Part shown: piece after piece, positions 1,060 to 63,948 of the stretch
Numbering within the stretch: position 1 is the first letter of the stretch
How the letters are laid out: every line of letters begins with the position of its first letter
Origin: a virus
Lineage: Duplodnaviria; Caudoviricetes
Strand: one strand, 5' to 3'
DNA: 64,000 nucleotides
IMG/VR virus record: IMGVR_UViG_3300029928_000005
Span: 34,117 to 98,116 of that record
The notes under the pieces: model-generated
Seen by the model: the letters and a program-made list of their open reading frames with translations, nothing else
Told to the model about the DNA's origin: nothing
Database searches by the model: none
Program-made: the position numbers and the translations under genes

Positions 1060-1096
1060 GCTCGGCTTCGCCTCGCGACTCCCCGTAGAGGAAGTG
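1060..1096. repeat. GC-rich element GCTCGGCTTCGCCTCGC + CCCCGTAG motif
   Basis: 1060-1076 is identical to 57393-57409; CCCCGTAG at 1081-1088. Confidence 0.9.
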
Positions 1097-1138
1097 ATGT
1101 ATCCCCAATATATTATTAATTAAAATAATTTTGTTATT

Positions 1139-1762
1139 ATGAATACACTTGATATATTTGAAAAACATAGATATGCTAGAATAGCATACAATCCGTTATA
1201 TAAATATAGTGTTAATATAGGTCTTGGTTTTCCAGAAGAATATTATCCTCATAATGAAGAAAGTATTCTTGATGGAACTAATTTTATTGGTATAAAACAA
1301 TTAGGTTATTTGAGAGCTTATAGAGATTTTTATATAGATAAAATAATAAATAAAACAACAGATAATGAAACTAAAGAATTTATTTATAAACTTATTAATG
1401 ATAATACTGGTATATTAAATTGGACTTATTTAGACGAATCATATTATAAATTTGATATTGATAGAATATTAACTAATCTTTCTAATAGACGTATTATTAG
1501 AAGAACTAATAAGAAAAATATAATATTGTTAGCTAGTTATTTTTCTAATGATAATTATTATATTGAAAATGCTGCTGAATTTAGAAGATTATATGATTAT
1601 GATTATATATTTAGAAATAATATTACATATAGAGAACGTAATAAATTTAATAAAATGCTTAATTCTTTAAATCATAGTCATATTACAGAATTATTTGATG
1701 ATATAGATTACTATAGTTATTATAAAAGACATAATTTTATTTATAAAGATTATGGCAAATAA
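1139..1762 (+). CDS. hypothetical protein
   Basis: 207-aa ORF, very AT-rich, overlaps the start of the next gene; no recognisable motif. Confidence 0.75.
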   Translation: MNTLDIFEKHRYARIAYNPLYKYSVNIGLGFPEEYYPHNEESILDGTNFIGIKQLGYLRAYRDFYIDKIINKTTDNETKEFIYKLINDNTGILNWTYLDESYYKFDIDRILTNLSNRRIIRRTNKKNIILLASYFSNDNYYIENAAEFRRLYDYDYIFRNNITYRERNKFNKMLNSLNHSHITELFDDIDYYSYYKRHNFIYKDYGK

Positions 1763-2714
1763 TAAAACTACAACAATAGAACGTATCATTGCTAAAGTAG
1801 ATAATGATTTCAATCCTGATAATAGTGATTGGATTCCTAGAGTATCTGCTTGGGTTTATGATGCTTTGAACCAACTTAAATGTCTTCGTAAACAATATAA
1901 ATGTAGAAGACTAGAGGTTCATAATCGAATTGCTATTAGTCCTTGTTGTCCTGACGATAGTGTTCGAGTATTTGATAAATATGGTTGTGAGATTAAAATG
2001 ATGAATGATGCTAGATGTGGTGCTAATTGTGATGAAGGTAGGTGTGGCTCCAATACTTCTCCTATGGGGGGTCTGAATGTTGGTTATGGTTGCTATGACC
2101 ATCATCATGGATGCGACCCTTGTGAACCTCATCCTCATCCACATTTTGATGATTGTGGTTTTGAAATTGATATACATAATCATCACGACCATTGTCATGT
2201 TGCTGAATCTCATACAAGAGAAGTTGTTAATACTCATTTATTTCCTGATAAAGTACTTAATTGGACTGAACATACTGGTAGTTATGATTATAGGTGTATG
2301 CATAAAATGCACGAAGTTCATTTAAGAGATTTACAAAGTTATGGACGTAATAGAAATTTTGTAGTTAGTGGAAATAATATTGAACTTAATTTTGATACAG
2401 ATTATATAGTTGTTGCAATACTACAAGTTGAAACTGAATTTAGTGAATACTTTGGAAGTGAAGTTCCAAAAATTCCTGATAATGGTTTACTTATAGAAGC
2501 TATTACTGATTATGTAATGTATAGAATGCTAACTCGTGGTTATAAACATCCTGTTATGAGTTTAACTGCTGCAAGTGAAGCTCTTAATCCTTATGTAAGA
2601 TGGAAAGTTAATCTTGAAAAAGTTAAACGTAGTGTTACACTTGATGCACAACTTCCAACTGATGATGATTTAATGCGTAGTGCTTTTTATCTATTTACAT
2701 TTAATCCAAAATAA
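1752..2714 (+). CDS. tail tubular/ring protein (crAss Ttub-like) with His/Cys-rich insertion
   Basis: N-term TIERIIAKVDNDFN..WIPRV..WV.DAL and C-term P.IPD...L.EAI..Y match my recollection of crAss ring proteins; directly upstream of the stabilisation protein. Confidence 0.7.
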   Translation: MANNKTTTIERIIAKVDNDFNPDNSDWIPRVSAWVYDALNQLKCLRKQYKCRRLEVHNRIAISPCCPDDSVRVFDKYGCEIKMMNDARCGANCDEGRCGSNTSPMGGLNVGYGCYDHHHGCDPCEPHPHPHFDDCGFEIDIHNHHDHCHVAESHTREVVNTHLFPDKVLNWTEHTGSYDYRCMHKMHEVHLRDLQSYGRNRNFVVSGNNIELNFDTDYIVVAILQVETEFSEYFGSEVPKIPDNGLLIEAITDYVMYRMLTRGYKHPVMSLTAASEALNPYVRWKVNLEKVKRSVTLDAQLPTDDDLMRSAFYLFTFNPK

Positions 2715-2717
2715 GAT

Positions 2718-5700: not shown

Positions 5701-7541
5701 ATGCTATCGCTACTGTTTGGTCTTTAAATAATAATATTTATACTAATCCTAATAAAGAACTTGTTCGTATTAATAATATTCGTCTTATTGATGATAGAAC
5801 AAATCTAAATGATGATAATATTTTTGGTGCTTATCCCGGATGTTGTACATATAATAGTACTATAGTATTTAGACGTACTGGTGCTAGATGGGACCCACAA
5901 TGGACTACTGTTAAAGGTACTGACGGTTGTAGATATTATGCTCTTAATCAAGGTTCTTATAATGTTGTTAGTCCTCAACGTCTTGTTCAACATAGTTGTT
6001 ATTTTCATAGATTTTTTGAAAGTAAACAAGAAAATAATAGACCTGATATTCAATATTTTATTCTTAATATTAATAATAAAGAACGTTTTGATGATGAAGA
6101 AGATACTAAACGAATAGCAGCTCTACCAAATGATTCTCTTATGTTTCATGGTGGTCCTAATGTTCTATTTCCTGGTAGACCTGTTATGCCTAATCAAACA
6201 TTAGATATGTATCGTTATCAATTTCCTGATGAAGTTGTTTATGATAAATTACTTCTTGCTTATGACCCTAATAGACGTAATATTACTAAATATGATAAGA
6301 CTATAAGACGTAGTGATGTTATTCAAGACGAATCTTATGTAAATGCTTGGCGAACTTATACTGCTAATAACTATAAAATTATTACTGAAAATAAAGGTAA
6401 TATAGTTAATTTAGTTGGTATTGGTTTGTATCTTCTTGCTCATACTGAACATAGTATGTTTATGTTTGATAGAACAGCTGCTCTTCAAACTCAAAATCAA
6501 GATGTTCAACTCTTAACTCCTGATGCTTTTGATACACAATATAAAGAAGTTTATACAAGTGATAAAGGATTTGCTGGTATTCAAGATAGATTCGCTTACA
6601 TTGTTGGAGAGTTTGGTTATGTCTTTTATAATAATGATTTTCATCGTATATTTAAGTTTGATGAAAAAGCTATTAACTACGTTGATGATAATATTTATCT
6701 TTGGTTAGAAAAAGAACTTCCAATTAAAGTTAGATTTGGTAATGATAAATATAATAATAGATTACTTGCTTGTTTTACTATTGATAGTGAACATTGGGAA
6801 ACTCTAAGTTATAATACTCAAACCGGTACATATATTAGTGCTCATGATTATAAATTTGATTATGCTTATAACACTAAAGTTTATAATTATTATCAACATT
6901 TTATTCAAGCTACTAGTTTAAAACAATATACTTATGAAACTAATTATGGTAGATATGATAATAATCTAAATGATTTATATAATAAAACTAATGGTATTGA
7001 TAGAAATTTATTCCTTCAAGTTCCTGAAGGTGGTGAAGTTCAAGCATCTTATATAGATGTTATTTTTAATGATATGTATGAAACTATTAAGTTCCTTGAA
7101 TATATTAAATATAAAGTAAAACGAATTAATAATTATCTTAATAGATATGATTATGGTAATAATGTAGTTAATGACACATTCCCCGTAGAAGAAGAAACGT
7201 GGTCTAATGTAGCCTATGCTAATAGAAATGTACCTAATTATAGCGGCGATATTATTCGTATCTTTAATGAATATTGTGATACGTTTGATATAACTGTTGA
7301 TATTACTAATGACCCTAATAGATATAATCGTTATAAACTTCCTTATTTTGAACTTGGTAATTGGAATTTTAATTATTTTAGAAATAATATTCCTGCTCAT
7401 CCTGGCGAAATAAGTGATAAACTTAGACGAATTTATGGTAATCAAATTGTAGTTCGTTTTATATTTAAAAATACTCCTAACAAAAGAATTGAATTTGAAA
7501 ATATTCAATGTATTGTTACTAAACAAAGAAATGTTATATGA
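2718..7541 (+). CDS. tail stabilisation / muzzle protein (crAss Tstab-like)
   Basis: 1607 aa; N-term LNLNKHP..AKNIK..NEEG, G.YTFFIRY, GEVYSFYIHFV, C-term IRRSDVIQDES..NAWR..ENKG and RRIYG; synteny. Confidence 0.75.
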   Translation: MSEVPKTLNLNKHPALVPNYSLIQAKNIKLSNDLTRLTNEEGIRQNEHIKEAITNVYGGTGWYIVGVIPTSTELVIFTVSPNPVNNQFDGKIFRYNEDVEYGTSTLNDSKVNNCILVSDQWKWHGGKLKGDYTYNINQHLIVQLAEDPYDKEELNFVATYESNKQDIKVPLKTFDFDDWDIICNKPLGKCIDNPTFTVQDFVDERKVNNRKLENEDDGTDISTRFGNRADWVNAVVPQVPVCNVTWGGLINGNAFKGIYTFFIRYKIDCWGNYTQWYSIGFPIICDDIERNAVSRYNWYYDYGDQDDESGHGYGCIDFYSSNREFCTYLPKIRFKFQATWEVLNFQKYQIGIVIKRNDTTKCFRSDDFDRYPETNGNNKLEEYEYIFNREKLVETSLEELTLDKYNYYNVRNTINYQNRNYISNYTETNYNISEKEIGLFDEGYKINKIFKLKLFAYAPYRRQNPKENAIDLNSITYFQDYCMDEFCYDTNLIHAADDAKGKRKLSNAKSWEKVKGYDYGTWHRIMGGWLPGSHFGVPLYEVIGTDRNKLINVPGYGEDYAWKFILFQRGGRDSFAWWNKDDSRCSIGHVNADGSFQELGTDLTITWDNGDKSVYLDGGYNWMSAYSPYLDYKESFASRLTHKTLVPGEVYSFYIHFVDKFGQSTYGFHIPNLDSDWNGIDLNQTLETYFNGKTEAGITDQQLKAIYAAYRNNPTKWKDYKLYQFINNGGENSSGLIGYNQVLTAVGSTNLKWGYYANNSGQTFHRVPMYNMVADVGYANTRSQFRVFGANVDVDMNNTTTRDFLQRLKDLGYIGWYLSYEKAEPMSRVVGFASETDASEDIDDHPTNHDLDNLEDKFKGDYDGRWTYYRGNNNIATGGISDEKDVHKNVFVYSEDLNTTSRLKVDFNAISFRWSMFDYRGFWQDQGTNKVAEDRASLNLPEVMSTKRFKDVDKIIYPIEDYEILVADAPNNFNKGTRLRVRNPGVFNKENYEYNAIATVWSLNNNIYTNPNKELVRINNIRLIDDRTNLNDDNIFGAYPGCCTYNSTIVFRRTGARWDPQWTTVKGTDGCRYYALNQGSYNVVSPQRLVQHSCYFHRFFESKQENNRPDIQYFILNINNKERFDDEEDTKRIAALPNDSLMFHGGPNVLFPGRPVMPNQTLDMYRYQFPDEVVYDKLLLAYDPNRRNITKYDKTIRRSDVIQDESYVNAWRTYTANNYKIITENKGNIVNLVGIGLYLLAHTEHSMFMFDRTAALQTQNQDVQLLTPDAFDTQYKEVYTSDKGFAGIQDRFAYIVGEFGYVFYNNDFHRIFKFDEKAINYVDDNIYLWLEKELPIKVRFGNDKYNNRLLACFTIDSEHWETLSYNTQTGTYISAHDYKFDYAYNTKVYNYYQHFIQATSLKQYTYETNYGRYDNNLNDLYNKTNGIDRNLFLQVPEGGEVQASYIDVIFNDMYETIKFLEYIKYKVKRINNYLNRYDYGNNVVNDTFPVEEETWSNVAYANRNVPNYSGDIIRIFNEYCDTFDITVDITNDPNRYNRYKLPYFELGNWNFNYFRNNIPAHPGEISDKLRRIYGNQIVVRFIFKNTPNKRIEFENIQCIVTKQRNVI

Positions 7542-8476
7542 ATCAATATAGAGATAGACGTAAAGCATTTATTGGTGCTGTTGTTGGTGCTGGTCTTGGT
7601 GTAGCAAAAGGAATTGCTGGTATTGTTAGTAAAAAGAAACAAGCTGAAAAGCAACAGCAACAAGATTATGTTAATGCTGTTCTACAAAGTAAAGGTGGAA
7701 TGGATGATGAAATTAATAATAATGAAGCTCTTCAAGAACAATTTGAAAGTAAATATGTTATGAAATGTGGTGGTCGTAAAAGAGCTTGCTATGGTAAAGC
7801 TAGTAAAATGGCTTGTGGTGGTAGAAAAAAAGCTGAGCTTGGAGCTTTAACTCCTCTTCAAGCTCCTAAAATTGATGTAAGTCCTACTAACAATATTGAT
7901 AGTCTTAATAAAGATTTACAATCACAAATTGGTAATATTGGTAAAATGAATAGTTCTAGTACAGTCGCATCTCCTCTTCCTACGGGGGGTCAAGCTCAAT
8001 CGAATTTTAGTACAATAGGAGATGTATCTAATACTGCTGGTAAAATAGAAGCTGGTCTTTCAGGTGTTATGAATTTGGCTGGAAGTATTGGTAATATGAC
8101 AGGCAAATTTAAATGTGGTGGTCGTAAGAAAGGTTTAGCTGGTCTTAGTATGGGTATGCAAGCTGGTAATATGGTTGGTGAAATAGGTAAAGCATTTGTT
8201 AAAGGTCCACAGAAAACTGAAGTTGCTCAAACTAGTATTCGTAAACAAGGACTTACTAATTTAAATCAACTTGGTACTAATAATGTTCAAATGCCTACTA
8301 ATAATATTGTAACTGCTAATACTAATAGTGCTGCACCTATTCCAACTCAACCGTTAGTCGGCGGTGCTGATTCATACATGAAGCGTTGCGGAGGCAAACA
8401 AGCCAAATTTGGCACTTCTCGTCGTCGCTGTGGACTTGGCGTGTCCATCTCGATTAATAGCAAAGCTAAGAAATAA
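7538..8476 (+). CDS. virion cargo/ejection protein with repeated xCGG(R/K) motifs
   Basis: Gly/Ala-rich hydrophobic N-terminus (AFIGAVVGAGLGVAKGIAGIV), low complexity; position after the muzzle gene. Confidence 0.6.
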   Translation: MNQYRDRRKAFIGAVVGAGLGVAKGIAGIVSKKKQAEKQQQQDYVNAVLQSKGGMDDEINNNEALQEQFESKYVMKCGGRKRACYGKASKMACGGRKKAELGALTPLQAPKIDVSPTNNIDSLNKDLQSQIGNIGKMNSSSTVASPLPTGGQAQSNFSTIGDVSNTAGKIEAGLSGVMNLAGSIGNMTGKFKCGGRKKGLAGLSMGMQAGNMVGEIGKAFVKGPQKTEVAQTSIRKQGLTNLNQLGTNNVQMPTNNIVTANTNSAAPIPTQPLVGGADSYMKRCGGKQAKFGTSRRRCGLGVSISINSKAKK

Positions 8477-8496: not shown

Positions 8497-11226
8497 ATGA
8501 GTTCACTTAGACTTCGTAAAAGACGTATTCCTAACATAGTAAGAGGAGGTCGAGCAATATCTCTAGATAATAATGGTGAATTGTATTATTTACAAGGTCG
8601 TAGTCATGCGCAAGGAGGTATTGATATAGGCGAAAATCCTAGAACTGGTATTGAAGCTGAAGGTGGTGAAATAGTACAAATGAAACCTAATGAATTAAGA
8701 GTACTTTCAGCTCAAGATTTTATTGGTGGTGGTGTTAGTCCAGCTAAACAAGTTTTAGCTGGAGCTGACCCAGATAAAGTATTTAATGAACAAGAAAGAT
8801 TTAAAGATAGACATAGACTTAATGATGATGGCAGTAAATATAAAGAAGGCGGAAGTAGCGATAATCAAGATAGTTTAAATAATAAACCTGTTACAAATAA
8901 AGAACTTGCTTGGGATATTGTTAAATTATTAGACCCTACAGGTATTACTTCTTATAATGATGTTAAACGAGCTTTTAATGATTATAAAGATAATCCTATA
9001 GATTTACAATTATTTGGTAATTTATTATTTGAAACTGCTGGAGCTTTACCTGTTATTGGTAAAATTGGTAAGATTGGTAAATTACCTAGATTAATTACTA
9101 AATGGGGTAGAAGAGCTAAATTATTTAATAAAGCTCCTAAAGTTGCTGGAGATATAGATATGCTATATAATGATGGAGAAATTACTAAAGGTTTAGCATA
9201 TAAAGCTGCTAGAAATAGTGGAGGTATTGATGGAATGGGATTTATTATAGGTTCTGCTATTGATGATAAACCTTATACAGGAATTTATAATAATAAAAGT
9301 AATAAAAACGTTTTACGTTTATCTATTTATGGAGACGAAACTGGATTTAGAAAAAGTAGAATTAAAGAATCTCTTATAGATACTAAAAATAATAATGTTA
9401 TTGGAGACCTAAACAAATATTATTATCATAGTATGTATCCTTACGAAACTATTGATATACCAAAAAATAAAAAAGATGTTATTGATAATAATGTAGGAAA
9501 TATAATTAGAATTAATGGAGATATGATTGAAACAAAAGAACCCATATTAGATTATAAAGATGCAAGTCTAGCTATTAAAAGTCCTAATAAAGCTAGACTT
9601 TTTGATGTTTGGGACCAATCTAATAGTGTTCTTGGTAGAGCTTTAGATTTTGCAACTAGACCTACAGATAAATATAATTCTGGTATTCCTACTTTTATTA
9701 ATGAAATTCCTATAAGATATGTAGATAAAAATAATCAAAATAGTAAAACATTTAATGATATGATTATTCTAGATGATAATTTTAAAAATCAATTTAATCA
9801 AAAAAGAAATGGTGGTATGATTGCTACAATAAATGGAAATGTAAAAAACGGATTAATTACTACTCCACGTAAAAAATGTGGTGGACGTAGAAAAGCTGAA
9901 GGTGGTTTAACCACTACTACAGGTAGAAGAGGTACTTTAGCCAATGATACTTGGGAAACTAATGTTCTTTATTCTCCTGAACTTCTTGATTATTATAAAA
10001 ATATAGATTTAACTCAAGACCATGCTAGGCAAGATGCTTATTTTGCTACTAAGAATACTGTAAATTTTGACCCAAGTGGGGATACTTATGATGTTAATAA
10101 AGCTGTATTGCCTTATCAACAATGGTTTGCTAGAGACGCTCAAGGTTTGTTTAATAACATTAATAATAATACTGTAGCTAGAGGTAATACAGGTAATTGG
10201 TTAGACAATCGTTGGAGTAATGCTACGGAACAATATCATACCGGTATAAATTTACCAAGAGATGTTATTGTTAAATATAATGAACAACTTAAAGCTAATA
10301 ATAGATATATTGCTAATGACCTAGAAAATAATATGACTAAAGTATATGAAATGCCTGAACTTCTTAAAGCTCCTAATGTTCCACAACCTGTTAGACCTGA
10401 TTTATCTCCTATTGGACGTAATTCATCTCCTATTGGACGTAATTCATCTCCTACGGGGGGTCAAGCTAAAACTCCTCAAAGTTCTACTCCCCGTAGAAGA
10501 ATTAAATGGAATAATGACCTTACTTCTCTTGTAGTTAATGGACTTGGTTTTCTTGGAGCTTTTGGTGCTGATTTATGGGGAACTAATCTTCGTAGTTGGG
10601 AACCTTATCTTGAAGCTCCTGTTAAACTTAAAACTAATTGGAATATTAATCCTCAACTTGATAGAATTAGAGAATCTAGTCAAGAAGCTTATCGAGATAT
10701 TGATGCTAATACAGCTTCTAGTAGTACAGCTTTAGCTCGTAAACAACGAGTTCGTAATCAAGCTCAATATACTGCTAATGAACAATGGGGTACTAAAGAA
10801 AATAAAGAAACTGAACTTATTAATAAAGATAAACTTAATAGACAAAGTGTTCGTAATCGTAATACTAATAGATTAAATTATTGGGCTGAATCTGATGCTA
10901 ATATTGCTAATATGCGTAGACGTCTTCGTGGTGCTGCTTGGTCTAGTTTATTTGATAATCTTAATAAGACAGTTCAAGGTTATATTGGACGTAGAGACCA
11001 AAGACGTAGAGATGAAGCTATAGAACGTATGTTTAATAGAGCTTATCCTCATGGAGCTGCTATGGCTAGAAATATTCAAAGTCAAGAATCTAGCGGTGAT
11101 GCAACAATTCCTAGTTTAGCTACTAATCCTATCGCTGTTGCTGGTAGATTAGCAACAAAAGCACTTGATGATGAAATTGTAGCAAAGACTAAGAAAAGAT
11201 ATGGTAGTAAAATTAAAAGAAAATAA
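8497..11226 (+). CDS. virion cargo/ejection protein, multi-module
   Basis: 909 aa; N-term GRSHAQGG..EAEGGE; C-term PVKLKT.WNINPQL plus coiled coil as in crAss cargo proteins; internal DPTG..GALPVIGK segment. Confidence 0.6.
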   Translation: MSSLRLRKRRIPNIVRGGRAISLDNNGELYYLQGRSHAQGGIDIGENPRTGIEAEGGEIVQMKPNELRVLSAQDFIGGGVSPAKQVLAGADPDKVFNEQERFKDRHRLNDDGSKYKEGGSSDNQDSLNNKPVTNKELAWDIVKLLDPTGITSYNDVKRAFNDYKDNPIDLQLFGNLLFETAGALPVIGKIGKIGKLPRLITKWGRRAKLFNKAPKVAGDIDMLYNDGEITKGLAYKAARNSGGIDGMGFIIGSAIDDKPYTGIYNNKSNKNVLRLSIYGDETGFRKSRIKESLIDTKNNNVIGDLNKYYYHSMYPYETIDIPKNKKDVIDNNVGNIIRINGDMIETKEPILDYKDASLAIKSPNKARLFDVWDQSNSVLGRALDFATRPTDKYNSGIPTFINEIPIRYVDKNNQNSKTFNDMIILDDNFKNQFNQKRNGGMIATINGNVKNGLITTPRKKCGGRRKAEGGLTTTTGRRGTLANDTWETNVLYSPELLDYYKNIDLTQDHARQDAYFATKNTVNFDPSGDTYDVNKAVLPYQQWFARDAQGLFNNINNNTVARGNTGNWLDNRWSNATEQYHTGINLPRDVIVKYNEQLKANNRYIANDLENNMTKVYEMPELLKAPNVPQPVRPDLSPIGRNSSPIGRNSSPTGGQAKTPQSSTPRRRIKWNNDLTSLVVNGLGFLGAFGADLWGTNLRSWEPYLEAPVKLKTNWNINPQLDRIRESSQEAYRDIDANTASSSTALARKQRVRNQAQYTANEQWGTKENKETELINKDKLNRQSVRNRNTNRLNYWAESDANIANMRRRLRGAAWSSLFDNLNKTVQGYIGRRDQRRRDEAIERMFNRAYPHGAAMARNIQSQESSGDATIPSLATNPIAVAGRLATKALDDEIVAKTKKRYGSKIKRK
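10404..10453 (+). repeat. 21-bp tandem repeat (ATCTCCTATTGGACGTAATTC x2.4) running into a CTACGGGG motif
   Basis: Units 10404-10424 and 10425-10445, partial 10446-10453; encodes SPIGRNS-SPIGRNS-SPTGG. Confidence 0.95.
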
Positions 11227-13835: not shown

Positions 13836-16800
13836 ATGAGTTTAAAAGATGCTTTTAATAAAATGAATCAAGAGCCGGCAAATGCTGCTGGCTCTAATTA
13901 TATAAATCCTTTTGAAAGATATATACAAAATAACAATCTTGATAATACTCCTACATATTCTAGTGAAAAAGCAATTAGAAATGTTGATTTAAGTGGTCAA
14001 AATGTTATTCATTATAACCCATTACAATATAATAAATATGATATACCTGTTACTCCTAAAAGTAATATTGATGAACTTAATAGACAAAGAGCTATTAATC
14101 AATCTTTTGGTGAACAACTTTGGAGATTTGGTGTTCAAACTGTAGGAGACCAAATAGTTCTAGGAACTCTTCAAGCATTTACTGATATGGGTGATGCTTT
14201 ACTTGGTAATCAAGGTGGAGATTATTCTAATCCTCTTAGTACTGCTATAGAAGAAGCTAGAGAAGCTATTAGAGAAGCTAATGAGATATATAGAGTTAAT
14301 CCTGGTGAAAGTTTTGATTTAACAGATAGTGGATGGTGGCTTAATGGAGCTACTAGTATTGTAAGTTCTTTAGCTTTAATGGCTCCCGGACTTGCTGTTA
14401 CCAAAGGCGTTGGATTATTAGCTAAAGCTATTAATGCCACTAAAGGTGTTACTAAATTATTAGAAGGTTATAATACTGTTGCTAAAGGAGCTAAACTTGG
14501 AGCTTTAACAGTTAATAGTGCTAGAAGTGCTCAAATAATAGGACAAGGAAGTGAAGTATTAGGAATGGCTGCTGTTAGTAGAATTGCTGAAAATTATCAA
14601 GAAGCTAGACAAACTTATACTAATAGTATTGACCAAGTTATGAATGGTCTTGCCAATATGTCTAATGAAGAAAGAGATGAATTTGATAAAAACAATCCTG
14701 AATTTGCTAACAAATCTGATAGAGAAATAGCAGAATTAATAGCTGGTGAATCTGCTGATGATGTATTTTGGAAAGATATGTATCTTATAGCTTTTGATGC
14801 TATACAACTTAAAGCTCTTAATAAAGTATGGAAAGGTTTTCAAGGCAAAGGTCCTCTTAGTAAAGCTGTTCGTGATGAAGAACGTAAATTTGCTGCACAA
14901 ATTAGTGGTAAAACTTATGAACCTCTTACTGGTTTTAAAGGATTTGTTGATGATATGAAATTAATGATAAATCCTAAAATTGTTTTAACTGAAGCTACTG
15001 AAGGTTTAGAAGAATCATGGCAATATACTACTCAAAAAAGAGCTGAAGAAAATCTTCTTAATAAATTAAATCCTAAACAACAAGTTAGAGGTTATCTTGA
15101 TATTATTACTGATGAAGAAAGTTTAGAAAATGCTTTTTGGGGATGGATTGGTGGTATTACTTTTCAAGGATTAGGTGGTGCTACTATGAGAGGTATTAAT
15201 GCTTATCAAGATAAACGATATAAAAAAAAACATCCTGAAGATGCTGCTGGATATAATCTTCGTCGTCAAGAAGGAGTTATGGATTCTTATAGAACTGAAG
15301 AAATTAAATCTCGTATTAGCGAAATAGGTCGTTATCATGAATTAAGAAAACTTGTTGACGATGGTTATGATGTTTATAATTATAGAACAGATGAAAATAA
15401 TAATATAATAACAGACCAAGAAGGAAATGTTGTTTATGAACCTCTTACTGATGAATATCAAGGTGAATTAATAAAACAAGATTTGGAAAATGATATGCTT
15501 GTTAATATAGCTTTAAATGCTTATGACAGAGGTAATTATAATGCTCTTAAAGAAACAGTTAAAGATACAAATTTTAATGAACAAGATAAAAGTTTTGCTG
15601 ATAGAGCTATTAGTAAAATGGACGAAACTGTTGATATGTATGAAAAAGAATTAGGAATGGCTATTGCTAATTCTTTTTCAGAAAATATTGCTCGTCAAAT
15701 AGCTTTAAATAATGTTAAAGCAAAACTTAAAATTAGAAATCATGAAAAACTTGCTACTGATTTCGGAGTTCATATTGAAGATTTGATGCGTATTAATAAT
15801 TATTCTGGTGATGACGAAAAAGAAATAAGAACAAAACTTCAAGAACTTGAACTTGCTTATTATAAAGAACAACTTGAAGAAATTAATTATCAAATTGAAG
15901 ATTATAAAAGAAGATATAATGAATCTACTACTGATAGAATTAGTCGTAGTACTTTTTTAAAACAAATTAGACAACTTAATAGAATTAAAAATATTATATA
16001 TAATAAAAAACCTGAACTTAAACAATTAGAAAATAGACGTAATGAAATTGATAATCAAATAACTTCTTTACAAGAAGAACTTACTAATGCTGCTAAACAA
16101 TTAAGAAATGCCATTGATGTTAGAGATAGTAATCTTGAAAAAACTCTTAGTGATGGAATGACTAAAACTCAAGAAACTACTGATAATTTAAATAAAGAAT
16201 TAATAGATATAGATATTTCTAGTAAAAAATCTTATGACGATATTTATGATGAACTTTCTAATATAAATAAAGAAATAGCTGATGCTAAAAATAATGAACT
16301 TACATTTACTAGTAGAGCTTTAATTAACGGAGGAGAAATTCTAAATACTAAAAATGAAATTACTCAAGAAGCTGAATTTATTAATAATACTCTTAGAGCA
16401 TTTAGAGATAAAGAATTAGGAGATGCTGATAAAACTATTAATGATATTATATCTAATAAAGATTTAAATTTAGAAGAAATTGCTGATGAACTTAATGGAA
16501 GACAAACAAATCTTCCAGACGAAGTTAAGACTAGACTTAAAAAAGCTATTGAAAAATATAATCTTTATAGTTATAATAATGCTCCTATATTAGATAAAAT
16601 TAGTATTAAACTTAGACAAGAAGCTAGAAAAAGAGAAGAAGCTCCTGAAGCTGTTAAAAATGACGAACCTGTTACTGAAGTTCCTGTTACTCCTATACAA
16701 AGTGAAGCTAGTGAAGAAACTGTTAGTTCCCCCGTAGAAGGAGAAACTCAGTCTACATCTTCTACTTCTACGGGGAGTCAAACACAACAATCAGTTATTA

Positions 16801-19800: not shown

Positions 19801-20417
19801 AATTTATTGCTTATACTTTAACAAATAGAAGTTTTATTGATTTACTCAATAATATAGAAGATGAAGTTGTTGAAGGTAAAAAGACTCTTTGGGATAAATT
19901 TATTGATTTTATTGCTAAACTTTTCTTTGGAAATGATTATAAAATAAATGAAAGAAGTCTTCTTAATAGACAAATTAGATTACTTTCTAATGGAATTTCA
20001 AATAATAAAAAAGTAACTAATGTTAGTACCCCTATACAAGGAGAGCTGAATTTTGATAATGCTCCTTCTACGGGGAATGTTAATCGAGATATACAAAATA
20101 ATCAAGAAGCAACTATAGGTGAACCTTCAGAAGTTAAACCTGAATCTGTTCAAGAACAATATACTGAAACTCCTGAATATACTGCTAAAGAATATTCTGA
20201 TTTACAAAGTTTAGCAGATAGTTTATCTGATGATTTTGATTTAACTGAATTTAATGATGAAGATAATTTTAATGATTTAGATAATATGGCTTCTGAACTT
20301 ATATTTGAAGATATTCAAGTAACCAACTTATCGACCGTTGAACAGAGTTTACGACCTGACCAACGAACCGAATTTGGTACTTTAGCTTCTGCTGGAGCGA
20401 TTAAATTACATTGCTAA
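13836..20417 (+). CDS. giant virion protein with C-terminal zincin-like metallopeptidase motif
   Basis: 2193 aa; LLHERVH (HExxH) followed by EEFIA; E..EE..Q motif in the N-terminal part; immediately upstream of the RNAP gene. Confidence 0.7.
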   Translation: MSLKDAFNKMNQEPANAAGSNYINPFERYIQNNNLDNTPTYSSEKAIRNVDLSGQNVIHYNPLQYNKYDIPVTPKSNIDELNRQRAINQSFGEQLWRFGVQTVGDQIVLGTLQAFTDMGDALLGNQGGDYSNPLSTAIEEAREAIREANEIYRVNPGESFDLTDSGWWLNGATSIVSSLALMAPGLAVTKGVGLLAKAINATKGVTKLLEGYNTVAKGAKLGALTVNSARSAQIIGQGSEVLGMAAVSRIAENYQEARQTYTNSIDQVMNGLANMSNEERDEFDKNNPEFANKSDREIAELIAGESADDVFWKDMYLIAFDAIQLKALNKVWKGFQGKGPLSKAVRDEERKFAAQISGKTYEPLTGFKGFVDDMKLMINPKIVLTEATEGLEESWQYTTQKRAEENLLNKLNPKQQVRGYLDIITDEESLENAFWGWIGGITFQGLGGATMRGINAYQDKRYKKKHPEDAAGYNLRRQEGVMDSYRTEEIKSRISEIGRYHELRKLVDDGYDVYNYRTDENNNIITDQEGNVVYEPLTDEYQGELIKQDLENDMLVNIALNAYDRGNYNALKETVKDTNFNEQDKSFADRAISKMDETVDMYEKELGMAIANSFSENIARQIALNNVKAKLKIRNHEKLATDFGVHIEDLMRINNYSGDDEKEIRTKLQELELAYYKEQLEEINYQIEDYKRRYNESTTDRISRSTFLKQIRQLNRIKNIIYNKKPELKQLENRRNEIDNQITSLQEELTNAAKQLRNAIDVRDSNLEKTLSDGMTKTQETTDNLNKELIDIDISSKKSYDDIYDELSNINKEIADAKNNELTFTSRALINGGEILNTKNEITQEAEFINNTLRAFRDKELGDADKTINDIISNKDLNLEEIADELNGRQTNLPDEVKTRLKKAIEKYNLYSYNNAPILDKISIKLRQEARKREEAPEAVKNDEPVTEVPVTPIQSEASEETVSSPVEGETQSTSSTSTGSQTQQSVITTNEGEVIVSEELDPDISPEDKANLEAITIQSQGDYEVGKSIRNDIRKALSNKNIDWFARDYNTIFNEIKQQLLNKYNKEDVDREMKDFDMQLYESISNNGISFEDAVQNINYFRKAIEESNSSLIFESAAVANNNNLANEQLRQLYINLIERYVEKNNIVTNSQRLYVNLDELIKYLIRNGIVDRTTLRNIYNNMSLFFRSRYNNGDTIYKLKYVPFRLSERKLDKLFNEVEAGDNIGQDIFKRAIDPTADKRINVINKELYLEAGTPIYAVRHSSGFGIDFYVEQDGKMVQIGYNSIGKRSANGNGYNITARGINYNILNENGVYTSDLDDIFTTLFPYNENYENIPLSKDDGKALNAIFDLGYEMVNLKVNKKFKDGWLINYKEQIEDILKCKIINDFLSKHFSNFATNKEGAVSSFIQLIYPIIEFSRVSGLNSDLNRNVVILYKDFIIRQISNYDFTNQLNKQLQGMPNTSKNPAVVTLNVTRSQRGDPIEEGELKPINADSIVGFNLDKSDNSEGEVHLARIIDKGQIKLDNGRIHNIPGFNRNLGSPLLLALSNGSNYPDYIPIYASTINELKDDDFGKDLLAEINNIFINFKNGVIDFDTVYDRLKELIGPNKLIQDMALYKTKDDKIIISYYKNVGTNKTADITIYKRDNAGNISTGISFTNSDGNVTSGKQLSDKTINDFISRLFGIARIASNYDYFENVTIDTPYVKKNNKEMIITLNNHEYKARNYLEFISKYKTGKIQLDKKVINGKETNFNPLTTNQGANINIQVDYNEQSGNQVDNRVQEEENKNINDFLNKARQSGNNISINKLLPKRNTKKLLELFAPNYVGTFFNSNGSIRTIGSVGLLPTNFIIRAFDENGDFIEYDANNPNKEVDASYYENGTYEITTKLLTRVNPNDESSQEEFIRTLLHERVHGLIASKAGKVNIEEIRDGINYIIDKLYEFVDNGDKLSQYALANNLNVDILRNNLNKLRDYINNLKRNGKNDTAVEEFIAYTLTNRSFIDLLNNIEDEVVEGKKTLWDKFIDFIAKLFFGNDYKINERSLLNRQIRLLSNGISNNKKVTNVSTPIQGELNFDNAPSTGNVNRDIQNNQEATIGEPSEVKPESVQEQYTETPEYTAKEYSDLQSLADSLSDDFDLTEFNDEDNFNDLDNMASELIFEDIQVTNLSTVEQSLRPDQRTEFGTLASAGAIKLHC

Positions 20418-34190: not shown

Positions 34191-34363
34191 ATATTAACAA
34201 CTTTAAATTATATATCCATGAACATTCTCCGTAAGAGAAGGATTAGTATTCTACTCTTTCAAGTCTTCTTTTTATTAAATGAATTAAAATTAGACTTTCT
34301 GAGCTTGTTTCTTTGTTTTGTGTAGGATTATTCATCTTACGATTTAAAATTGAATACAAGTCA

Positions 34364-35584: not shown

Positions 35585-35849
35585 TATGTTTATTAATTAT
35601 AGCATCAATAAAATATTTGGTACAAGTACCATAAATTATATCAGAAGAAATATTATCACTTCTAATAATAGTGGTTGGATATTGCGGCTTATCCATTCCA
35701 TTTTCTATGGGGGGTATAGCACCGTCTCGACTAAGAAGACTATGAATTGTAATTTCATGAGGACAATCATTCATAATACTTTTAATAATATCCTTCATAA
35801 TCTTACAAGCAGCACAACCACTTTTGTCATAAAAATCAATGTGTACCAT
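35556..35849 (-). CDS. thioredoxin/glutaredoxin-like protein (CxxC)
   Basis: Start reassigned to MVHIDFYDKSGCAACK; cis-Pro motif YPT. Confidence 0.75.
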   Translation of the reverse strand: MVHIDFYDKSGCAACKIMKDIIKSIMNDCPHEITIHSLLSRDGAIPPIENGMDKPQYPTTIIRSDNISSDIIYGTCTKYFIDAIINKHIANDSRRKV

Positions 35850-37727: not shown

Positions 37728-37808
37728 AGACCCCCCGTAGAAGGAGAATGTTGAGCCATATCTACATATATAGCCTATGATACCATCCATTCCTCTACGG
37801 GGAATCTA
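37728..37808. repeat. inverted pair of CCCCGTAG motifs
   Basis: AGACCCCCCGTAGAAGGAGAATG ... CATTCCTCTACGGGGAATCT. Confidence 0.9.
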
Positions 37809-43827: not shown

Positions 43828-44306
43828 ATCTTAATAATAACATTATCTTTAGTTAATATTCTAGTAGCTTTAGGCTTAGCTTCTCGTTTCTTTTTAGTAA
43901 CAATAGGTTCAATAATTTCAGCACCAGTAATTAAATCTCTAGACTTAATACTTGTAGCTATTCTCTTACCCCCCGTAGAAGGAGAATTCTTAGCTCCTTT
44001 CTTCTTAGTATAAATAACAGGAGGATTATCTTTTTCAAATTCTAAGTTAGTAATATGTCTTTGTTCAAGTTTTCCTCTATATAAATTACATTGTTCAACA
44101 GTAACAAAATTATTATCAATAGCCATATTAAGAATCTTATTAAATGCTTCCATTAAAAAATTATATCTATAATTAATAGTTTGCATAATTCTTCCAATAG
44201 GAGTTATTTTTGTACAATCTAATTCATTTAGAATATTATCAAGAACTTGAAAATAAGATTTACCAATAAGCCAACTTTCAACTAGTTTTTCTTCATTTTT
44301 GTCCAT
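43824..44306 (-). CDS. hypothetical protein
   Basis: Start reassigned to MDKNEEK. Confidence 0.75.
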   Translation of the reverse strand: MDKNEEKLVESWLIGKSYFQVLDNILNELDCTKITPIGRIMQTINYRYNFLMEAFNKILNMAIDNNFVTVEQCNLYRGKLEQRHITNLEFEKDNPPVIYTKKKGAKNSPSTGGKRIATSIKSRDLITGAEIIEPIVTKKKREAKPKATRILTKDNVIIKI

Positions 44307-44736
44307 AAGGATAAATTTGTTGTCGATAAATAATAACTCTTTTAGGACGACCAACTAATGTATAAGCATAATCCCATACAAGTAAAGGATTAGTACTAAA
44401 TATAAAAGTAGGAGGTTTAATAACTTTATATTGTTCATTTATATTAGAATGAATACAAGTTCCATTTTCATTTACCAGATTAAATCTGATAATAGCTCTA
44501 GCATCTTCTTCATTAGAAGAATTTACTTCTCCATAACAGTATATGGAATCTTTTGACACATTAAGAATATCATCTTCAACAACAAGATTAATACTTTTTT
44601 CGTCATCAAGCTTTTCTTCTTGTTTTTCAGTAATACTTTGCATATAAACATTATAATATTTACCATTATGTTTAATACGGCAAAGAACTGTTCGAGACCT
44701 TATCCCTAATAGATTGATTATGTCTTTCTCGTTCAT
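44293..44736 (-). CDS. hypothetical protein
   Basis: 147-aa ORF in operon. Confidence 0.75.
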   Translation of the reverse strand: MNEKDIINLLGIRSRTVLCRIKHNGKYYNVYMQSITEKQEEKLDDEKSINLVVEDDILNVSKDSIYCYGEVNSSNEEDARAIIRFNLVNENGTCIHSNINEQYKVIKPPTFIFSTNPLLVWDYAYTLVGRPKRVIIYRQQIYPYGQK

Positions 44737-45853
44737 CTTCTATAATCTTAATTGTTTGATTAATAAGATTAAGAATAGTATCATCACTATATAAATTCCT
44801 AAGTTCAGCAAAATCTTTAGCTTCATAACTTCTAGGAATTATAATAGGAAATATATTCCAATCATCTCGATATTTAATAGCACACATATAGCCAGCTCTA
44901 TCATTATCAAATAGACTAACTATCATAGAAGTTTTACTCCTAATAAAATTATATTCTTGTTTAGTAAGAATATGAGTTTCGCTAGGAATATTTACAATAC
45001 CTATACTAAGTTCATCATTGGAGACCCCCCGTAGAAGATGTGTATGTATAAATTCATCTAGACTAATTCTATCTTTACTCGATTTAGTAATTACAATAAA
45101 ATCATAATTATCTAATTCAAGATTCCATACACCTTCAATATGATTACAATTAGTAATAAAGCGAACCTTATTATGTCCTCTTTTAGGAAAATATAATTTC
45201 CAATTATAAATACCTCTACTATCTTGACCTAGAAGATAAGCATAACAAGGGTCGCTTTTGTCATACACATATTTACTCTCAGGATTAATTTTTCTATTAA
45301 TCCAATATTCCTGAACAGGATAAACAAATCTACTATTAAGAAATCCAAGACTAACACCAAATTTAGCCCAATAATTTTTATCATTATTATTCCAACTTCT
45401 ATAGGCTACTTCAATAATATTCTTTTTATTCTTTATAGTAGAAATTGCATTATTAATGTCAGTAATTACACGTTCATCTTTATCTTTTCCATATATAATA
45501 TTTTTAAATGTATAAGCACAATGTCTAAGACAAAACATAAAATCATGTTTATTACTAACATCAAGTTCTCGTTCAGTAATAGTAGACAATACATAAGCAA
45601 TAATATCCCAAATATCTCCCCAGAAATAACCAGCAAAATCTCTAGCTTTAAGTTGTCTTTTATTATTATAAGCAAAACCAAAACTAGGATGTTCATCTTC
45701 TCGAAGAGGACTACAAATAGTACGTCCTGTCTGAACACACCATTCAACTGTTTCTATTGGTATATTGAGATATGTACTAGCAATAAGTTCCTGAGAAACT
45801 TTACTAAGAATATAAGTCTTAGTAAGTTTAGCATTAGCAACACCTCGTCCCAT
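44672..45853 (-). CDS. DnaG-type DNA primase
   Basis: CSPLRED.HPSF zinc-finger-like N-terminus, ITKSSKD, TOPRIM FDND..G, KDFAEL. Confidence 0.85.
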   Translation of the reverse strand: MGRGVANAKLTKTYILSKVSQELIASTYLNIPIETVEWCVQTGRTICSPLREDEHPSFGFAYNNKRQLKARDFAGYFWGDIWDIIAYVLSTITERELDVSNKHDFMFCLRHCAYTFKNIIYGKDKDERVITDINNAISTIKNKKNIIEVAYRSWNNNDKNYWAKFGVSLGFLNSRFVYPVQEYWINRKINPESKYVYDKSDPCYAYLLGQDSRGIYNWKLYFPKRGHNKVRFITNCNHIEGVWNLELDNYDFIVITKSSKDRISLDEFIHTHLLRGVSNDELSIGIVNIPSETHILTKQEYNFIRSKTSMIVSLFDNDRAGYMCAIKYRDDWNIFPIIIPRSYEAKDFAELRNLYSDDTILNLINQTIKIIEDERERHNQSIRDKVSNSSLPY

Positions 45854-49184: not shown

Positions 49185-50609
49185 CTATAATAGTACAGCA
49201 CCAATATTTTCATCAAAAGTTATTTCTTTTTCATGTGCATGTACATGATAAGAATTACTTTCTTTTACTTTTTCAAATGCTTTTTCCTCAATAGTGTTTT
49301 CTATATAAATCTTATAAATATTAGTAGGAACTTCACCTAAACTAACTTTATTAAATCTATATTTAAACTCCCACCAATCAGCAAACATAGCACTTGTAAA
49401 AATAAACACGTCTGACGTACATTCCAGCTCATCTGACGAAGCATTTTTGATGCTAAGTACATTTATACCACCTTGTTGAATAGCTTGCTCTACGAGGCTT
49501 GAATTAGGTCGATACGGCACGACCCCACACAACTTGAACCGTCTAACATTATCAGTACTAATAAATTGAGCTTTAACAATTCTAGGTTTACCCTTATTAA
49601 TACCAGACTTAACAAAAATAGGATTACCATTAGTATCAACAGCTTGTTTCGGAGGAATAGCATCGTGATATTCACCAACAGCAATACCATTTTTATTAAG
49701 ATATTCATAGACAGTATGAGCAAACTCACCACGTTTACTAACAATAATAATTCTCTTATCAGAATTTTGACGAACTATATCAAGAATAGCTGGCAATTTA
49801 CAACTAGCATCAGTAAGCATATTAGAACGTTCACGCATAATATTATATGCAGTTTCAGCTCTTAATGCAATACTACCCGGATTATACATATCATCTATTT
49901 GTTTATTAAATTCAGATGTACAATCAAGATATTCATGCCAACCATTTTCGCGAGCAATATGGTCGCAAATAGTTTCTTTACCAATATTAAGTTCTTTATC
50001 ACCAATTCTAGCTTGATTAATTCTATCAAAACTTCCAAATATTTTTATAGTTTGAGTAATATAATCACTATATTTTTCATATTTAACAAAATCATCAGCA
50101 TCAAAAGTTACTGGCACTCTCCATTCCTCTACGGGGGAATTGTCACGAACTACATTAGCTTGACTATTAGTAATTACATTATCAATTATAGGAAAATGAG
50201 AACTAATACCATTAGTAATTTGCTTATCATTAACTTTCCTATCAAGAATAACAAACCTAAATTTAGATTGTTCTATAATTGCAACAGTATTTTTTAATAA
50301 TACAGTAAAACCAATAGCTATACAAACATCATATTGATATTTATACATAGGATTAATATATTTAGTAGTAACAACAATTACACTATCTAATAATCCATTT
50401 TGATTAAGATATTGTCTTACAGTATTATAATTAACATATTGACAACATAGAATAAAAACTTTACAATTAGGATTCTTATTCCTCATAAGTTGAATGACAT
50501 GAATAGCTAACTCATAAGAATTAACAGGATTAATAGCATAAGTACTACCAATACCTTTTTGTTTTCTCCATTTATTAGCTATTTTATCATATAATTCTAC
50601 TTTATTCAT
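49185..50609 (-). CDS. SF2/SNF2-like helicase-fold protein, probably catalytically degenerate
   Basis: Helicase-like C-terminal domain (IIIVS, VGEYH, IY.IY..NT.EE); no canonical Walker A or DExx. Confidence 0.55.
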   Translation of the reverse strand: MNKVELYDKIANKWRKQKGIGSTYAINPVNSYELAIHVIQLMRNKNPNCKVFILCCQYVNYNTVRQYLNQNGLLDSVIVVTTKYINPMYKYQYDVCIAIGFTVLLKNTVAIIEQSKFRFVILDRKVNDKQITNGISSHFPIIDNVITNSQANVVRDNSPVEEWRVPVTFDADDFVKYEKYSDYITQTIKIFGSFDRINQARIGDKELNIGKETICDHIARENGWHEYLDCTSEFNKQIDDMYNPGSIALRAETAYNIMRERSNMLTDASCKLPAILDIVRQNSDKRIIIVSKRGEFAHTVYEYLNKNGIAVGEYHDAIPPKQAVDTNGNPIFVKSGINKGKPRIVKAQFISTDNVRRFKLCGVVPYRPNSSLVEQAIQQGGINVLSIKNASSDELECTSDVFIFTSAMFADWWEFKYRFNKVSLGEVPTNIYKIYIENTIEEKAFEKVKESNSYHVHAHEKEITFDENIGAVLL

Positions 50610-52358: not shown

Positions 52359-52383
52359 AACTCTATTAAATTTTAATTTTGAA

Positions 52384-52654: not shown

Positions 52655-53898
52655 ATGTCCCAATGTACATAAGTATAACCATCTTGACCCCCCGTAGAAG
52701 GAGAACTACTATACAAAGCTCTTGGAGGGTCTTGACTATGAAGTCCTCCAGTAGCTACAGTATAAGTAAGATTACCTATTACAACATTTCTTTCAAAAGC
52801 ATCTTTACTAACTTTAGTAACTTTTACCTTCTTAATATCATTAAGAAATTCTTGAAGTTTAGGAGTCTTAAACCTAATAATAGGAAAGATAACTTTATTA
52901 AAACTCATAATAGTTCTTTCAGTTTTCTTTCCTTTCCATTGACTTGGATGAAGACCACTAAATTCACTATAAAACTTTTCAAAAAGTCTATCTGCAATAT
53001 TACTACGACTACTATTTAAAAGATTAACTTTATAACTATGACTTAAACTATATCTAAGTTTAATTTCATCAGTAAATAGTCTAGTAATTTCAGCTACAAT
53101 AAAAACATCATTCTTATTATAGTGCATCATAGGTTTAATATACTCATCAAGAATATATCTATCCCATGTTTGAACTCTCTGATTAAGTTCTTCGATAGTA
53201 GCTCCTTTATAAGGATAATTACCATGAACTTCTAAATTCCTATAAATATCAGCATCAGCCTCACAAATAGGAGGCATTTCATATTCTAATAGTTCATACC
53301 ATTTAAGATTAATACTAACTTGTTTAAGTCCTTTTGGTACAGGAATACGAGTACCATCTTTATCAACGATAACACTTGCTTTATTAAGAGCAAATATTTT
53401 CATTACATCAAGACTAACATAAGGAAGCTTATAAGTTCTAAGAACTTCAATAGCATAATCTTTTACATGGTTATCACTATTTTGTAATTCAATTATTCTT
53501 TTACTTGTATTATAAAGATAAGTTATTAATTCTTTTGTATTATCACATCTCAAAACATTACTAAGTAAAGCAGCAATCATTAGATTATCATAAGCCTGAT
53601 TATTATAACCAAACAAATCATGTCTTACATCTTTAGTAGCAACAAGATTGTTTATATAATTAATCATTGGAAATAGTTGGCTATCATCTTTATCAGTTAT
53701 ATAAAATTGTGTAGAATTAACTTTATCAAGTCTAGCTTTAATTTCAGTTACACTTAATTTTTCAGTTATAGGAATAGGTTTTCCTTTATCATCTACACAA
53801 TCTTTAAATACTTCCATAAAATCATTAATATCAACAAATGTAATACTAAAGAAATTAGGAAGAACTTCTGTGTCAAATCCAATAGCTTTAACCACCAT
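52655..53898 (-). CDS. polB: family B DNA polymerase, exon 1 (3'-5' exonuclease and start of palm)
   Basis: FDTEV (ExoI), GYNN..YD (ExoII), YNKNDV (ExoIII), GGLHS, YVHWDI. Confidence 0.92.
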
Positions 53899-55823: not shown

Positions 55824-55831
55824 AACATAAC

Positions 55832-57360: not shown

Positions 57361-57392
57361 TTTATTAATTGTTTAATGATTAATACTAATAG

Positions 57393-57533
57393 GCTCGGCT
57401 TCGCCTCGCCGACCCCCCGTAGGAGAATGATTGGAGCCAGCATATCTAGCTATATCCATAACATAAGCTATAGTATCAGGATTGGCTTAATCATCTCCTT
57501 CTACGGGGAATATGCGCAGGACGAAGTCCGAGC
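57393..57533. repeat. ~140-bp imperfect inverted repeat containing a CCCCGTAG pair
   Basis: GCTCGGCTTCGCCTCGC..CCCCCCGTAGGAGAATGATT ... AATCATCTCCTTCTACGGGG..GCGCAGGACGAAGTCCGAGC. Confidence 0.9.
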
Positions 57534-57607
57534 ACTTATACATTACTACAATCAGCAATGTATAAATGTGTTCTACGGTCATTAACATGACCTTGAACAA
57601 AACTAGT

Positions 57608-59337: not shown

Positions 59338-59442
59338 AATGATTATGATTATGATAAATAGTAGCTGGCTTAGTTCCTCCTTTTATGGGGAATCTAACAC
59401 CAACTACATTACTACAATTAATATATATAGAAGATTAAGAAT

Positions 59443-62904: not shown

Positions 62905-63687
62905 TTATATCTTTATCACATATCCATTTTTATCAATAATAGTTACTTTACTTCTTTTTCTATCTTTTCTTCCTTTTACTTCTTCAACCATTTCGTTATT
63001 TAATTTAAGAACATCACATTTATTTTCTTCATAATTATTATCTTGTTCTACAATATTATCTATTTCTTCAACTTCTTTAGCATACATACTTTTATCTACA
63101 TAAAGAGTTCCTTCAATATCATTTTTATCTTTAAATACTTTATATTTATCTATAACAACTATATTGTTTTTTGTAACAATAGTATTTTTAAGTTCATATT
63201 CTATTCTTTTATTATATGTAAGAAGATTTCCTTTATAAATATATAATGGATTTACACAATAAAGTCTTTGTATATTAGTTTTACGAATAACATCATTTGC
63301 TATTAAAACTTTAATAGTATTATAATAATCTCTATTACTAATTTCTTTTCCTAAACAACCTTTTATTCTTTCAATACTAAGTTTTATCCAATTACTATCA
63401 AATTCAATTTTAGCAGCTATATAACCACAAATTCTATAAAAATGAAGATTATCAACTTTATTCATAATATCCCAAAGACTATCTCCTATAAGATTAAAAG
63501 AATGTTTAAGTCTAAAAGGTTGAATAATTTTAGTTCCATCATATAAAATTCCTCTTACGGTTTCTGTATCTTCTAAAGTAACAGGAAATGGATTGGGAAT
63601 ATTTAATTTAATATTCGGATTATTACCAGAACCAACAAGTTCGATAGTTTCATTTAAACTTTTAACAAAATTATAATGCGTACTCAT
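62905..63687 (-). CDS. RepL-like winged-helix protein (copy 3)
   Basis: YYNTIKVLIANDVIRKT...LYCVNPLYIYKG, the RepL-type C-terminal motif. Confidence 0.65.
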   Translation of the reverse strand: MSTHYNFVKSLNETIELVGSGNNPNIKLNIPNPFPVTLEDTETVRGILYDGTKIIQPFRLKHSFNLIGDSLWDIMNKVDNLHFYRICGYIAAKIEFDSNWIKLSIERIKGCLGKEISNRDYYNTIKVLIANDVIRKTNIQRLYCVNPLYIYKGNLLTYNKRIEYELKNTIVTKNNIVVIDKYKVFKDKNDIEGTLYVDKSMYAKEVEEIDNIVEQDNNYEENKCDVLKLNNEMVEEVKGRKDRKRSKVTIIDKNGYVIKI

Positions 63688-63698
63688 AACAAAATGAC

Positions 63699-63835
63699 TT
63701 TTTAGTATATTAATTGGTATAAATATATCAATATTATTGATTTTTAGTACCCAATTCGGTAATTATTTTTTATTTTATCTATTTGATTATCAATAAGTTA
63801 CAACTTTTCCTTTCTTATATATAATATATAAATCA
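63699..63835. promoter_or_regulatory. upstream module of RepL-3: repeats, IHF-type site, AT tract
   Basis: TTTTTAGTA...AATT(C)GGTA at 63699 and 63741; TATCAATAAGTTA 63788-63800; TATATATAATATATA near 63817. Confidence 0.55.
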
Positions 63836-63885
63836 TAGATTTATTGCTATCTATATAATCAATATCATTCTTTCTAATATGTACA

Positions 63886-63948
63886 CTCCCCGTAGGAGAA
63901 TGATGGATGGCTATAGCTTGCTCAATATCTCCTCCTACAGGGAATCTA
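63886..63948. repeat. inverted pair of CCCCGTAG-type motifs
   Basis: CTCCCCGTAGGAGAATGAT ... ATCTCCTCCTACAGGGAATCT. Confidence 0.85.

Follow-up and report, generated by a model that had tools for sequence, protein, structure and literature searches.

Why should a short DNA word recur, letter for letter and on both strands, through the genes of a phage, essential ones included? The question is raised by a 64,000-nt stretch (the window) of the IMG/VR record IMGVR_UViG_3300029928_000005, comprising bases 34117–98116 of a 98,116-bp crAss-like phage genome whose terminase, cargo and primase place it in the Intestiviridae (terminase identity 68% to cr3_1 and 61% to p-crAssphage; primase identity 68% to an IMG/VR genome). 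An earlier note, made from the sequence alone, had listed 24 exact copies of CCCCGTAG here, and each listed coordinate and strand was verified (14 copies as CCCCGTAG on the plus strand, 10 as CTACGGGG on the minus strand), as were the placement of 18 copies within coding sequences (CDSs), leaving six intergenic (1081, 37733, 37795, 57415, 57501 and 63888), and the four peptide readings (S/P)TG, PV(E/G), PRR and LRG. Its estimates of ∼27% GC and ∼0.1 expected copy agree with our computed 27.5% GC and 0.05 copies under a second-order Markov model. The complete genome holds 35 exact copies (18+/17–), and a position weight matrix (PWM) built from the genome, with consensus agacc CCCCGTAG aaGRag, raises the total to 46 sites, although site lists vary with the PWM threshold; five of the degenerate copies noted earlier (2062, 31582, 35705, 59383 and 63935) pass this PWM and one (20029) fails. 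The proposed comparison with codon-preserving shuffles gave a clear answer: 30 exact copies are CDS-embedded in the complete genome, against a mean of 0.09 (maximum 1) across 300 synonymous-codon shuffles, and inside genes the word demands rare codons such as CCC, GGG and ACG. The enrichment is thus real and far above chance.

Relatives show what is being maintained. Our comparison panel consisted of 28 genomes, nearly all gut-derived, and the Intestiviridae set numbered ten (this phage, its closest relative G001, p-crAssphage, cr3_1, crAss002, 'jaberico', cr8_1, ctcc615, cr271_1 and ctbg_1). In all ten the top-ranked word has a core near CCCYRTRRA with lineage-specific flanks, occurs on both strands, and reaches 21–46 sites per genome by PWM; the pattern AGACCCCCCGTAGRAGRAG, which is the spelling of this lineage, had no match in IMG/VR. 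The exact core lying antisense in the primase gene (45027..45034, +) keeps its position and orientation in 9 of the 10 Intestiviridae while its peptide reading shifts, being LRG or LQG in four and LYG, FYG or FYR in five. The site in the SNF2-like gene (50129..50136, –; read as PVEE) is kept in 9 of 9 relatives and one in the RNA polymerase (RNAP) gene (23619..23626, –; STGG) in 8 of 9, with position and orientation alike, while many other sites turn over. At four-fold degenerate G/C positions, core bases had changed in 0 of 11 cases against 37% elsewhere in comparison with a relative whose primase is 93% identical, and at p-crAssphage-like loci the difference was 4.6% in the core against 41% elsewhere. 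Codon shuffles, the frame change at the primase site and four-fold-site conservation agree, ruling out peptide or codon bias as the cause and bearing out the earlier view that selection acts on the DNA; that is, lineage spellings of the word are under purifying selection at the DNA level, and synonymous core positions are conserved among relatives. The accompanying suggestion that sites sit in surface loops holds as far as the primase site, which maps to a low-confidence loop of the predicted structure (predicted local distance difference test, pLDDT, <50). An inserted element resembling repetitive extragenic palindromes or miniature inverted-repeat transposable elements was not supported, since sites are orthologous across genera and lack a hairpin of their own.

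The sites are ordered strand by strand. Same-strand gaps (median 5.8 kb, quartiles 4.1–7.6 kb) are very even, with coefficients of variation of 0.25–0.57 on 18 of the 20 strands against ∼1 for random placement, and when strand labels were permuted over fixed positions the observed per-strand regularity was reached in 0 of 2000 permutations. Among 301 sites, none had a same-strand neighbor within 500 bp, whereas 94 had an opposite-strand neighbor within that distance. The word is non-palindromic with an asymmetric consensus, strand labels are non-random given the positions, and both strands are balanced in all relatives. Each strand therefore carries its own evenly spaced lattice of sites, and the signal is polar. 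Such a lattice is hard to reconcile with a non-directional coating site and points instead to a process running along one strand from site to site. Orientation does not follow the genes: 115 sites are co-oriented and 139 counter-oriented with local transcription, consistent with the earlier dismissal of a gene-oriented promoter or ribosome-binding site, and ∼73% of sites lie within CDSs. The stoperators of mycobacteriophage L5, ∼30 asymmetric phage-private sites per genome, are alike in number and asymmetry, but they are aligned with transcription and lie near gene ends, unlike the crAss word. Downstream of the core (+15 to +35), pyrimidines predominate and G is scarce on the motif strand across all sites, irrespective of gene direction, with a purine fraction of 0.33–0.38 at the flank minimum; pairing of the purine run with this flank was considered and showed no site-specific complementarity.

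What reads the word is probably a phage-encoded protein, as the earlier note had supposed. Fourteen Bacteroidales genomes (2.5–6.1 Mb) held 0–11 of the 12-mers each, like the control, with the 8-mer at or below its reversed control, and the crAss001 word was likewise not enriched in Bacteroides genomes; with the word at background in these hosts, mimicry of a host Chi or KOPS signal is ruled out. Moreover, the host on record is B. cellulosilyticus for 'jaberico' and 'frurule' alike, yet their words are unrelated. The two candidate binders previously named fared differently. RepL-like genes occur in only 3 of 10 carriers, and G001 has none yet bears 34 sites, so that RepL cannot be the family-wide reader; the window's two RepL-like genes (36968–37543 and 62905–63687, –) recur in p-crAssphage and are absent from G001 and most Intestiviridae. 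The IHF-like protein (67–1059) is conserved in all ten genomes, if only weakly IHF-like (Atlas 0.82, a lead), and stays a candidate reader, but simple coating by it would leave the per-strand spacing unexplained. The same objection meets the original idea of non-directional double-stranded sites for a coating or looping protein of matS/parS kind, read by either protein. Sites that are genome-wide, within genes and phage-private would suit it, as would the ubiquity of the IHF-like gene, but the word is non-palindromic, is regular per strand with no exclusion across strands, and is accompanied by neither a partition ATPase nor any clustering that we could see; we regard this explanation as very improbable. 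matS and parS are palindromic and regional, DNA uptake sequences serve host competence, and neither has per-strand spacing, the likeness to the crAss word being that of a repeated word kept in genes at a rare-codon cost. RepL iterons cluster at an origin with the Rep gene, whereas the crAss word is scattered.

Nucleic-acid proteins common to all Intestiviridae and to cr127_1 (Crevaviridae) include primase, PolB, SF1 helicase, SNF2-like ATPase and ligase, together with DUF932, a Gam-like protein, a PD-(D/E)XK nuclease and RNAP. The primase (44672..45853, –) is a stand-alone TOPRIM protein of DnaG/T7-type fold (Foldseek E 7.5e–7 to Aquifex primase) with an orthologue in all carriers. A DnaB-type helicase was not found in any of the ten Intestiviridae or in cr127_1, and is present in crAss001, DAC15, frurule and Dulem virus 41. 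The proposition that the word occurs only where DnaB has been lost holds for the long strong word (11 of 11), but DnaB-bearing phages have words too, so that loss is not a necessary condition. cr127_1 carries a different ∼30-bp element around CGCCCTTGTGGCCA (10 copies, 5+/5–), while the four DnaB-bearing phages carry shorter two-strand, multi-frame words that are ∼9–15-fold over codon shuffles: CTCCAGAAG in crAss001 (26 in CDSs against 2.9 expected; per-strand regular, permutation P < 0.001), CTCCMGGMC in Dulem virus 41 (33 against 2.2; spacing P = 0.008), CACCAGAAG in DAC15 (18 against 1.6; spacing not significant) and CACTTGAAG in frurule (14 against 1.2; spacing not significant). Positions of these four words are not conserved between genera, and they would be at most putative homologues of the Intestiviridae word, which they resemble in behavior. 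Face-to-face pairs occur in DAC15 (503+/575–, inside the annotated terminal repeat) and crAss001 (102365+/102416–). No clear two-strand word was seen in phi14:2, cr108_1, cr116_1, bajarodcaudo, Fpv1, crAssE-Sib and MT835492 or in four of five gut Suoliviridae, although in any of these genomes a short word could escape detection. In cr50_1, TACTYYRGA is enriched on both strands (74 in CDSs against ∼18) with uneven spacing, and is similar to the first part of TACTRTGMC, the tf nick motif. ProJPt-Bp1 has no word, no DnaB and no detected TOPRIM primase, the nearest thing being a weak match to the N-terminal region of the primase, and may rely on the host replisome.

The explanation that we favor, tentatively and at rather less than an even chance, is that the word tells the phage's own DnaG-type primase where to start, as a single-strand initiation (priming) signal. 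We infer that the primase is the reader, that it recognizes single-stranded DNA, and also the start position and the mode of replication. The phage-private polar signal would work on one DNA strand at a time, recurring every 4–8 kb per strand: once a strand is displaced and coated by single-stranded DNA-binding proteins (SSBs), the primase would recognize the G-rich strand (∼5′-TCYTCTACGGGG-3′) and begin an RNA primer at the purine run (pppAG.. or pppAA..), PolB would extend it for ∼6 kb, as far as the following site on that strand, and the pieces would be joined by the phage ligase. A full set on both strands would be needed only if either strand can be the displaced template genome-wide, as could happen in strand-displacement, rolling-circle or recombination-started replication. 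A processive event of this kind, running from site to site on one strand, agrees with the per-strand regularity and with the lack of close same-strand neighbors. Without a DnaB-type phage helicase to position it, the primase would need some other way of choosing starts. A known signal of related kind is the G4 ori, primed by DnaG without DnaB. At the pyrimidine/purine junction the G-rich strand reads 5′-CTA at 163 sites, TTA at 111 and CCA at 15, of which CTA and TTA are trinucleotides at which Bacilli DnaG is known to start (PMC2978363). At 8 of ∼290 sites the G-rich strand has a C-GNA-G mini-hairpin 13–24 nt away (0.9 expected; 2 in the opposite-strand control); these sites are mostly intergenic, the clearest case being a symmetric intergenic element at 57390..57535, in which a hairpin and core 57415 (+) face core 57501 (–) and a second hairpin, both being C-GAA-G loops when read on the G-rich strand. 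Four of the 10 genomes have face-to-face pairs at the divergence of the gene blocks, including the pair at 63888..63942 here (exact core 63888, +; CCCTGTAG at 63935, –), which adjoins the contig end, and for C. communis one study predicts an origin in the gene-block divergence region and gives SSBs as the most expressed genes (PMC10983915). The nearest precedent is the IncQ plasmid RSF1010, whose own primase RepB′ reads long ssi sites on both strands (ssiA/ssiB; PMC6925257). Shared are a long, polar, element-private signal per strand, an element-encoded primase, and a face-to-face pair near the likely origin; RSF1010 differs in having two sites in one origin as against about 20–46 genome-wide and within genes, and the present primase is DnaG-type, its priming at the word being putative.

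Several points weigh against priming. The CTA/TTA match is weak, as our seed patterns partly imposed the junction, and RNA polymerases likewise initiate at a pyrimidine/purine step. Intergenic location confounds the excess of hairpins, which involves <3% of sites, and site flanks gave no general folding signal. Known DnaG sites are trinucleotides with Okazaki fragments of 1–2 kb, whereas the words here are of 12–20 bp and 6 kb apart. The link to DnaB loss represents a single evolutionary event and is suggestive only, and the four DnaB-bearing phages also carry two-strand words of like kind, if shorter. Finally, two-way theta replication from one origin needs one orientation per arm, but both are equally common here; with both orientations everywhere, a priming model would require forks that cross every region both ways.

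Programmed single-strand nicking of the kind described for T5, phiKMV and tf, here extended to both strands, ranks first among the rival accounts but is unlikely. Such breaks might serve for loading of the SF1 helicase, for priming of strand displacement or for relief of torsion during packaging or ejection, and the candidate enzyme would be the conserved PD-(D/E)XK nuclease adjoining the packaging genes, which is 48–75% identical across the Intestiviridae and found also in cr127_1. The nick motifs of T5, phiKMV and tf/LUZ24 are likewise short, asymmetric, dispersed, within genes and at like positions in relatives, but they occupy one strand only (PMC3517423), whereas the crAss word is evenly spaced on each. 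Nanopore reads of ∼100 kb from C. communis and crAss001 virions speak against nicks (PMC12946183), although library repair might have sealed them. A phage-private polar signal of Chi-like or Ter-like kind would instead halt an end-tracking phage helicase/nuclease at each correctly oriented site, or switch it to recombination (RecT loading), so that, whichever end the enzyme came from, oriented sites would mark the DNA as the phage's own. A signal of this sort has to be polar, present in both orientations and evenly spaced per strand, as the word is, and every carrier has a conserved SF1 helicase, nuclease, RecT-like protein and Gam-like protein. Chi itself (RecBCD/AddAB) is polar, dispersed and mostly in coding DNA, with an 8-nt core, all of which the crAss word shares; Chi, however, is enriched in the host chromosome, and the crAss word is not host Chi, being at background in the 14 Bacteroidales genomes. 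Its ∼30–40 bits per site are also long for a word read in passing, and we know of no phage enzyme that acts at such a polar stop, so that we consider this account improbable.

We are similarly doubtful that the sites load or start the virion RNA polymerase for genome pull-in or primer making. A C-rich word followed by a purine start would suit a polymerase, and GNA hairpins at a fixed upstream distance recall N4 promoters; the crAss virion RNAP, moreover, prefers single-stranded DNA (10.1101/2020.03.07.982082). More than half of the sites, however, oppose local transcription, early transcripts of phi14:2 are without a common upstream motif, and the pac-type headful packaging described for crAss002 gives one entry polarity, for which one orientation would be enough (PMC8042965). 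There is a small chance that the explanation is something other than priming, nicking, a Chi-like signal, virion RNAP or coating. In behavior the closest likenesses of the word are the ssi signal and the nick motif, yet it lacks a defining feature of either and is classed with neither.

The remaining sites are spread through both gene blocks. An intergenic exact core at 1081..1088 (+) has a GC-GAA-GC mini-hairpin on the G-rich strand ∼19 nt upstream, and a degenerate core, CCCCATAG (2062..2069, –), lies in the putative ring-protein gene (ORF 1752–2714, a sub-threshold match to a crAss tail ring protein) at a position shared with p-crAssphage, cr3_1 and ctbg_1. Exact cores follow in the 1607-aa tail gene (7181..7188, +; FPVE), in a CDS read as PTGG (7980..7987, –), and as a back-to-back pair in the 909-aa gene (10451..10458, –, PTGG; 10489..10496, +, PRR). 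The 2193-aa cargo gene has a face-to-face pair (16730..16737, +, PVE; 16768..16775, –, STG) and a further STG copy (20068..20075, –), and the 4441-aa RNAP gene, besides its conserved site, carries cores at 23233..23240 (+, PVG), 26451..26458 (–, PTGG) and 27004..27011 (+, PVE) and a weak degenerate copy at 31583..31591 (+; PWM 20.7 bits). Another weak degenerate copy (34227..34234, +; PWM 20.8 bits) lies near the convergence of the gene blocks. Beyond it are an exact core antisense in a 406-aa ORF (34805..34812, +; PTGG), a degenerate CCCCATAG (35705..35712, –), and an intergenic face-to-face pair (37733..37740, +; 37795..37802, –). Exact cores are antisense in ThyX (40996..41003, +; STGG), in a 176-aa ORF (43971..43978, +; STGG) and in the N-terminal part of PolB (52690..52697, +; STGG), and sense in the DNA ligase gene (43584..43591, –; PVG), where the position is kept in 4 of 9 relatives. 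A degenerate core, CCCCATAA, is intergenic (59383..59390, –).

Some further observations concern gene content and assembly. PolB is split (52633–53898 and 50606–51598) by an insert at 51614–52653 with a GIY-YIG/HNH homing endonuclease (ORF 51660–52412, –); contigs of three runs join 51613 to 52654, and L004 has an unsplit 752-aa PolB, so that the insert is probably optional and of intron type. Both contig ends (window 63960–64000; genome bases 1–50) consist of ATATAAT-type repeats by the face-to-face pair, an AT-rich region, origin-like or terminal, being the probable point at which the assembly broke. In the 135-kb contig G003, motif matches end at 91 kb, and the remainder may have another source and have been attached to a crAss genome. 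For window positions 36001–56000, relatives ∼82–95% identical over 0.6–1.3-kb pieces come from two chicken gut metagenome studies.

The literature that we covered, which included the crAssphage discovery paper, the Crassvirales review, the phage-plasmid preprint, the crAss002 paper and the Yutin survey, with most subscription papers outside its range, does not describe the word. The mode of replication of crAss-like phages is given as unknown in one source (PMC10136315). More broadly, and with still greater reserve than for the primase itself, we suggest that Crassvirales may replicate or process their genomes by way of long start signals, private to the phage and specific to a strand, that form one lattice on each strand and are read by a phage enzyme whose specificity has come to differ from family to family (CCCCGTAGAGG in Intestiviridae, CCACAAGGG in Crevaviridae, CTCCAGAAG or CACCAGAAG in some Steigviridae). 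Attempts to recode these genomes are limited by the word, which is also a marker of crAss DNA in contigs. Were the primase its reader, that enzyme would have 12–20-base specificity and would set out fragments of a fixed 6 kb; were the word a nick site, this would be the first two-strand nick system. Should the lattice reading be true, it would mean pre-programmed discontinuous DNA synthesis of a kind without known counterpart. Crass-like phages are the most abundant human gut phages, and the lattice gives a direct handle on their replication, a question accessible in the cultured phages crAss002, 'jaberico', crAss001 and DAC15.

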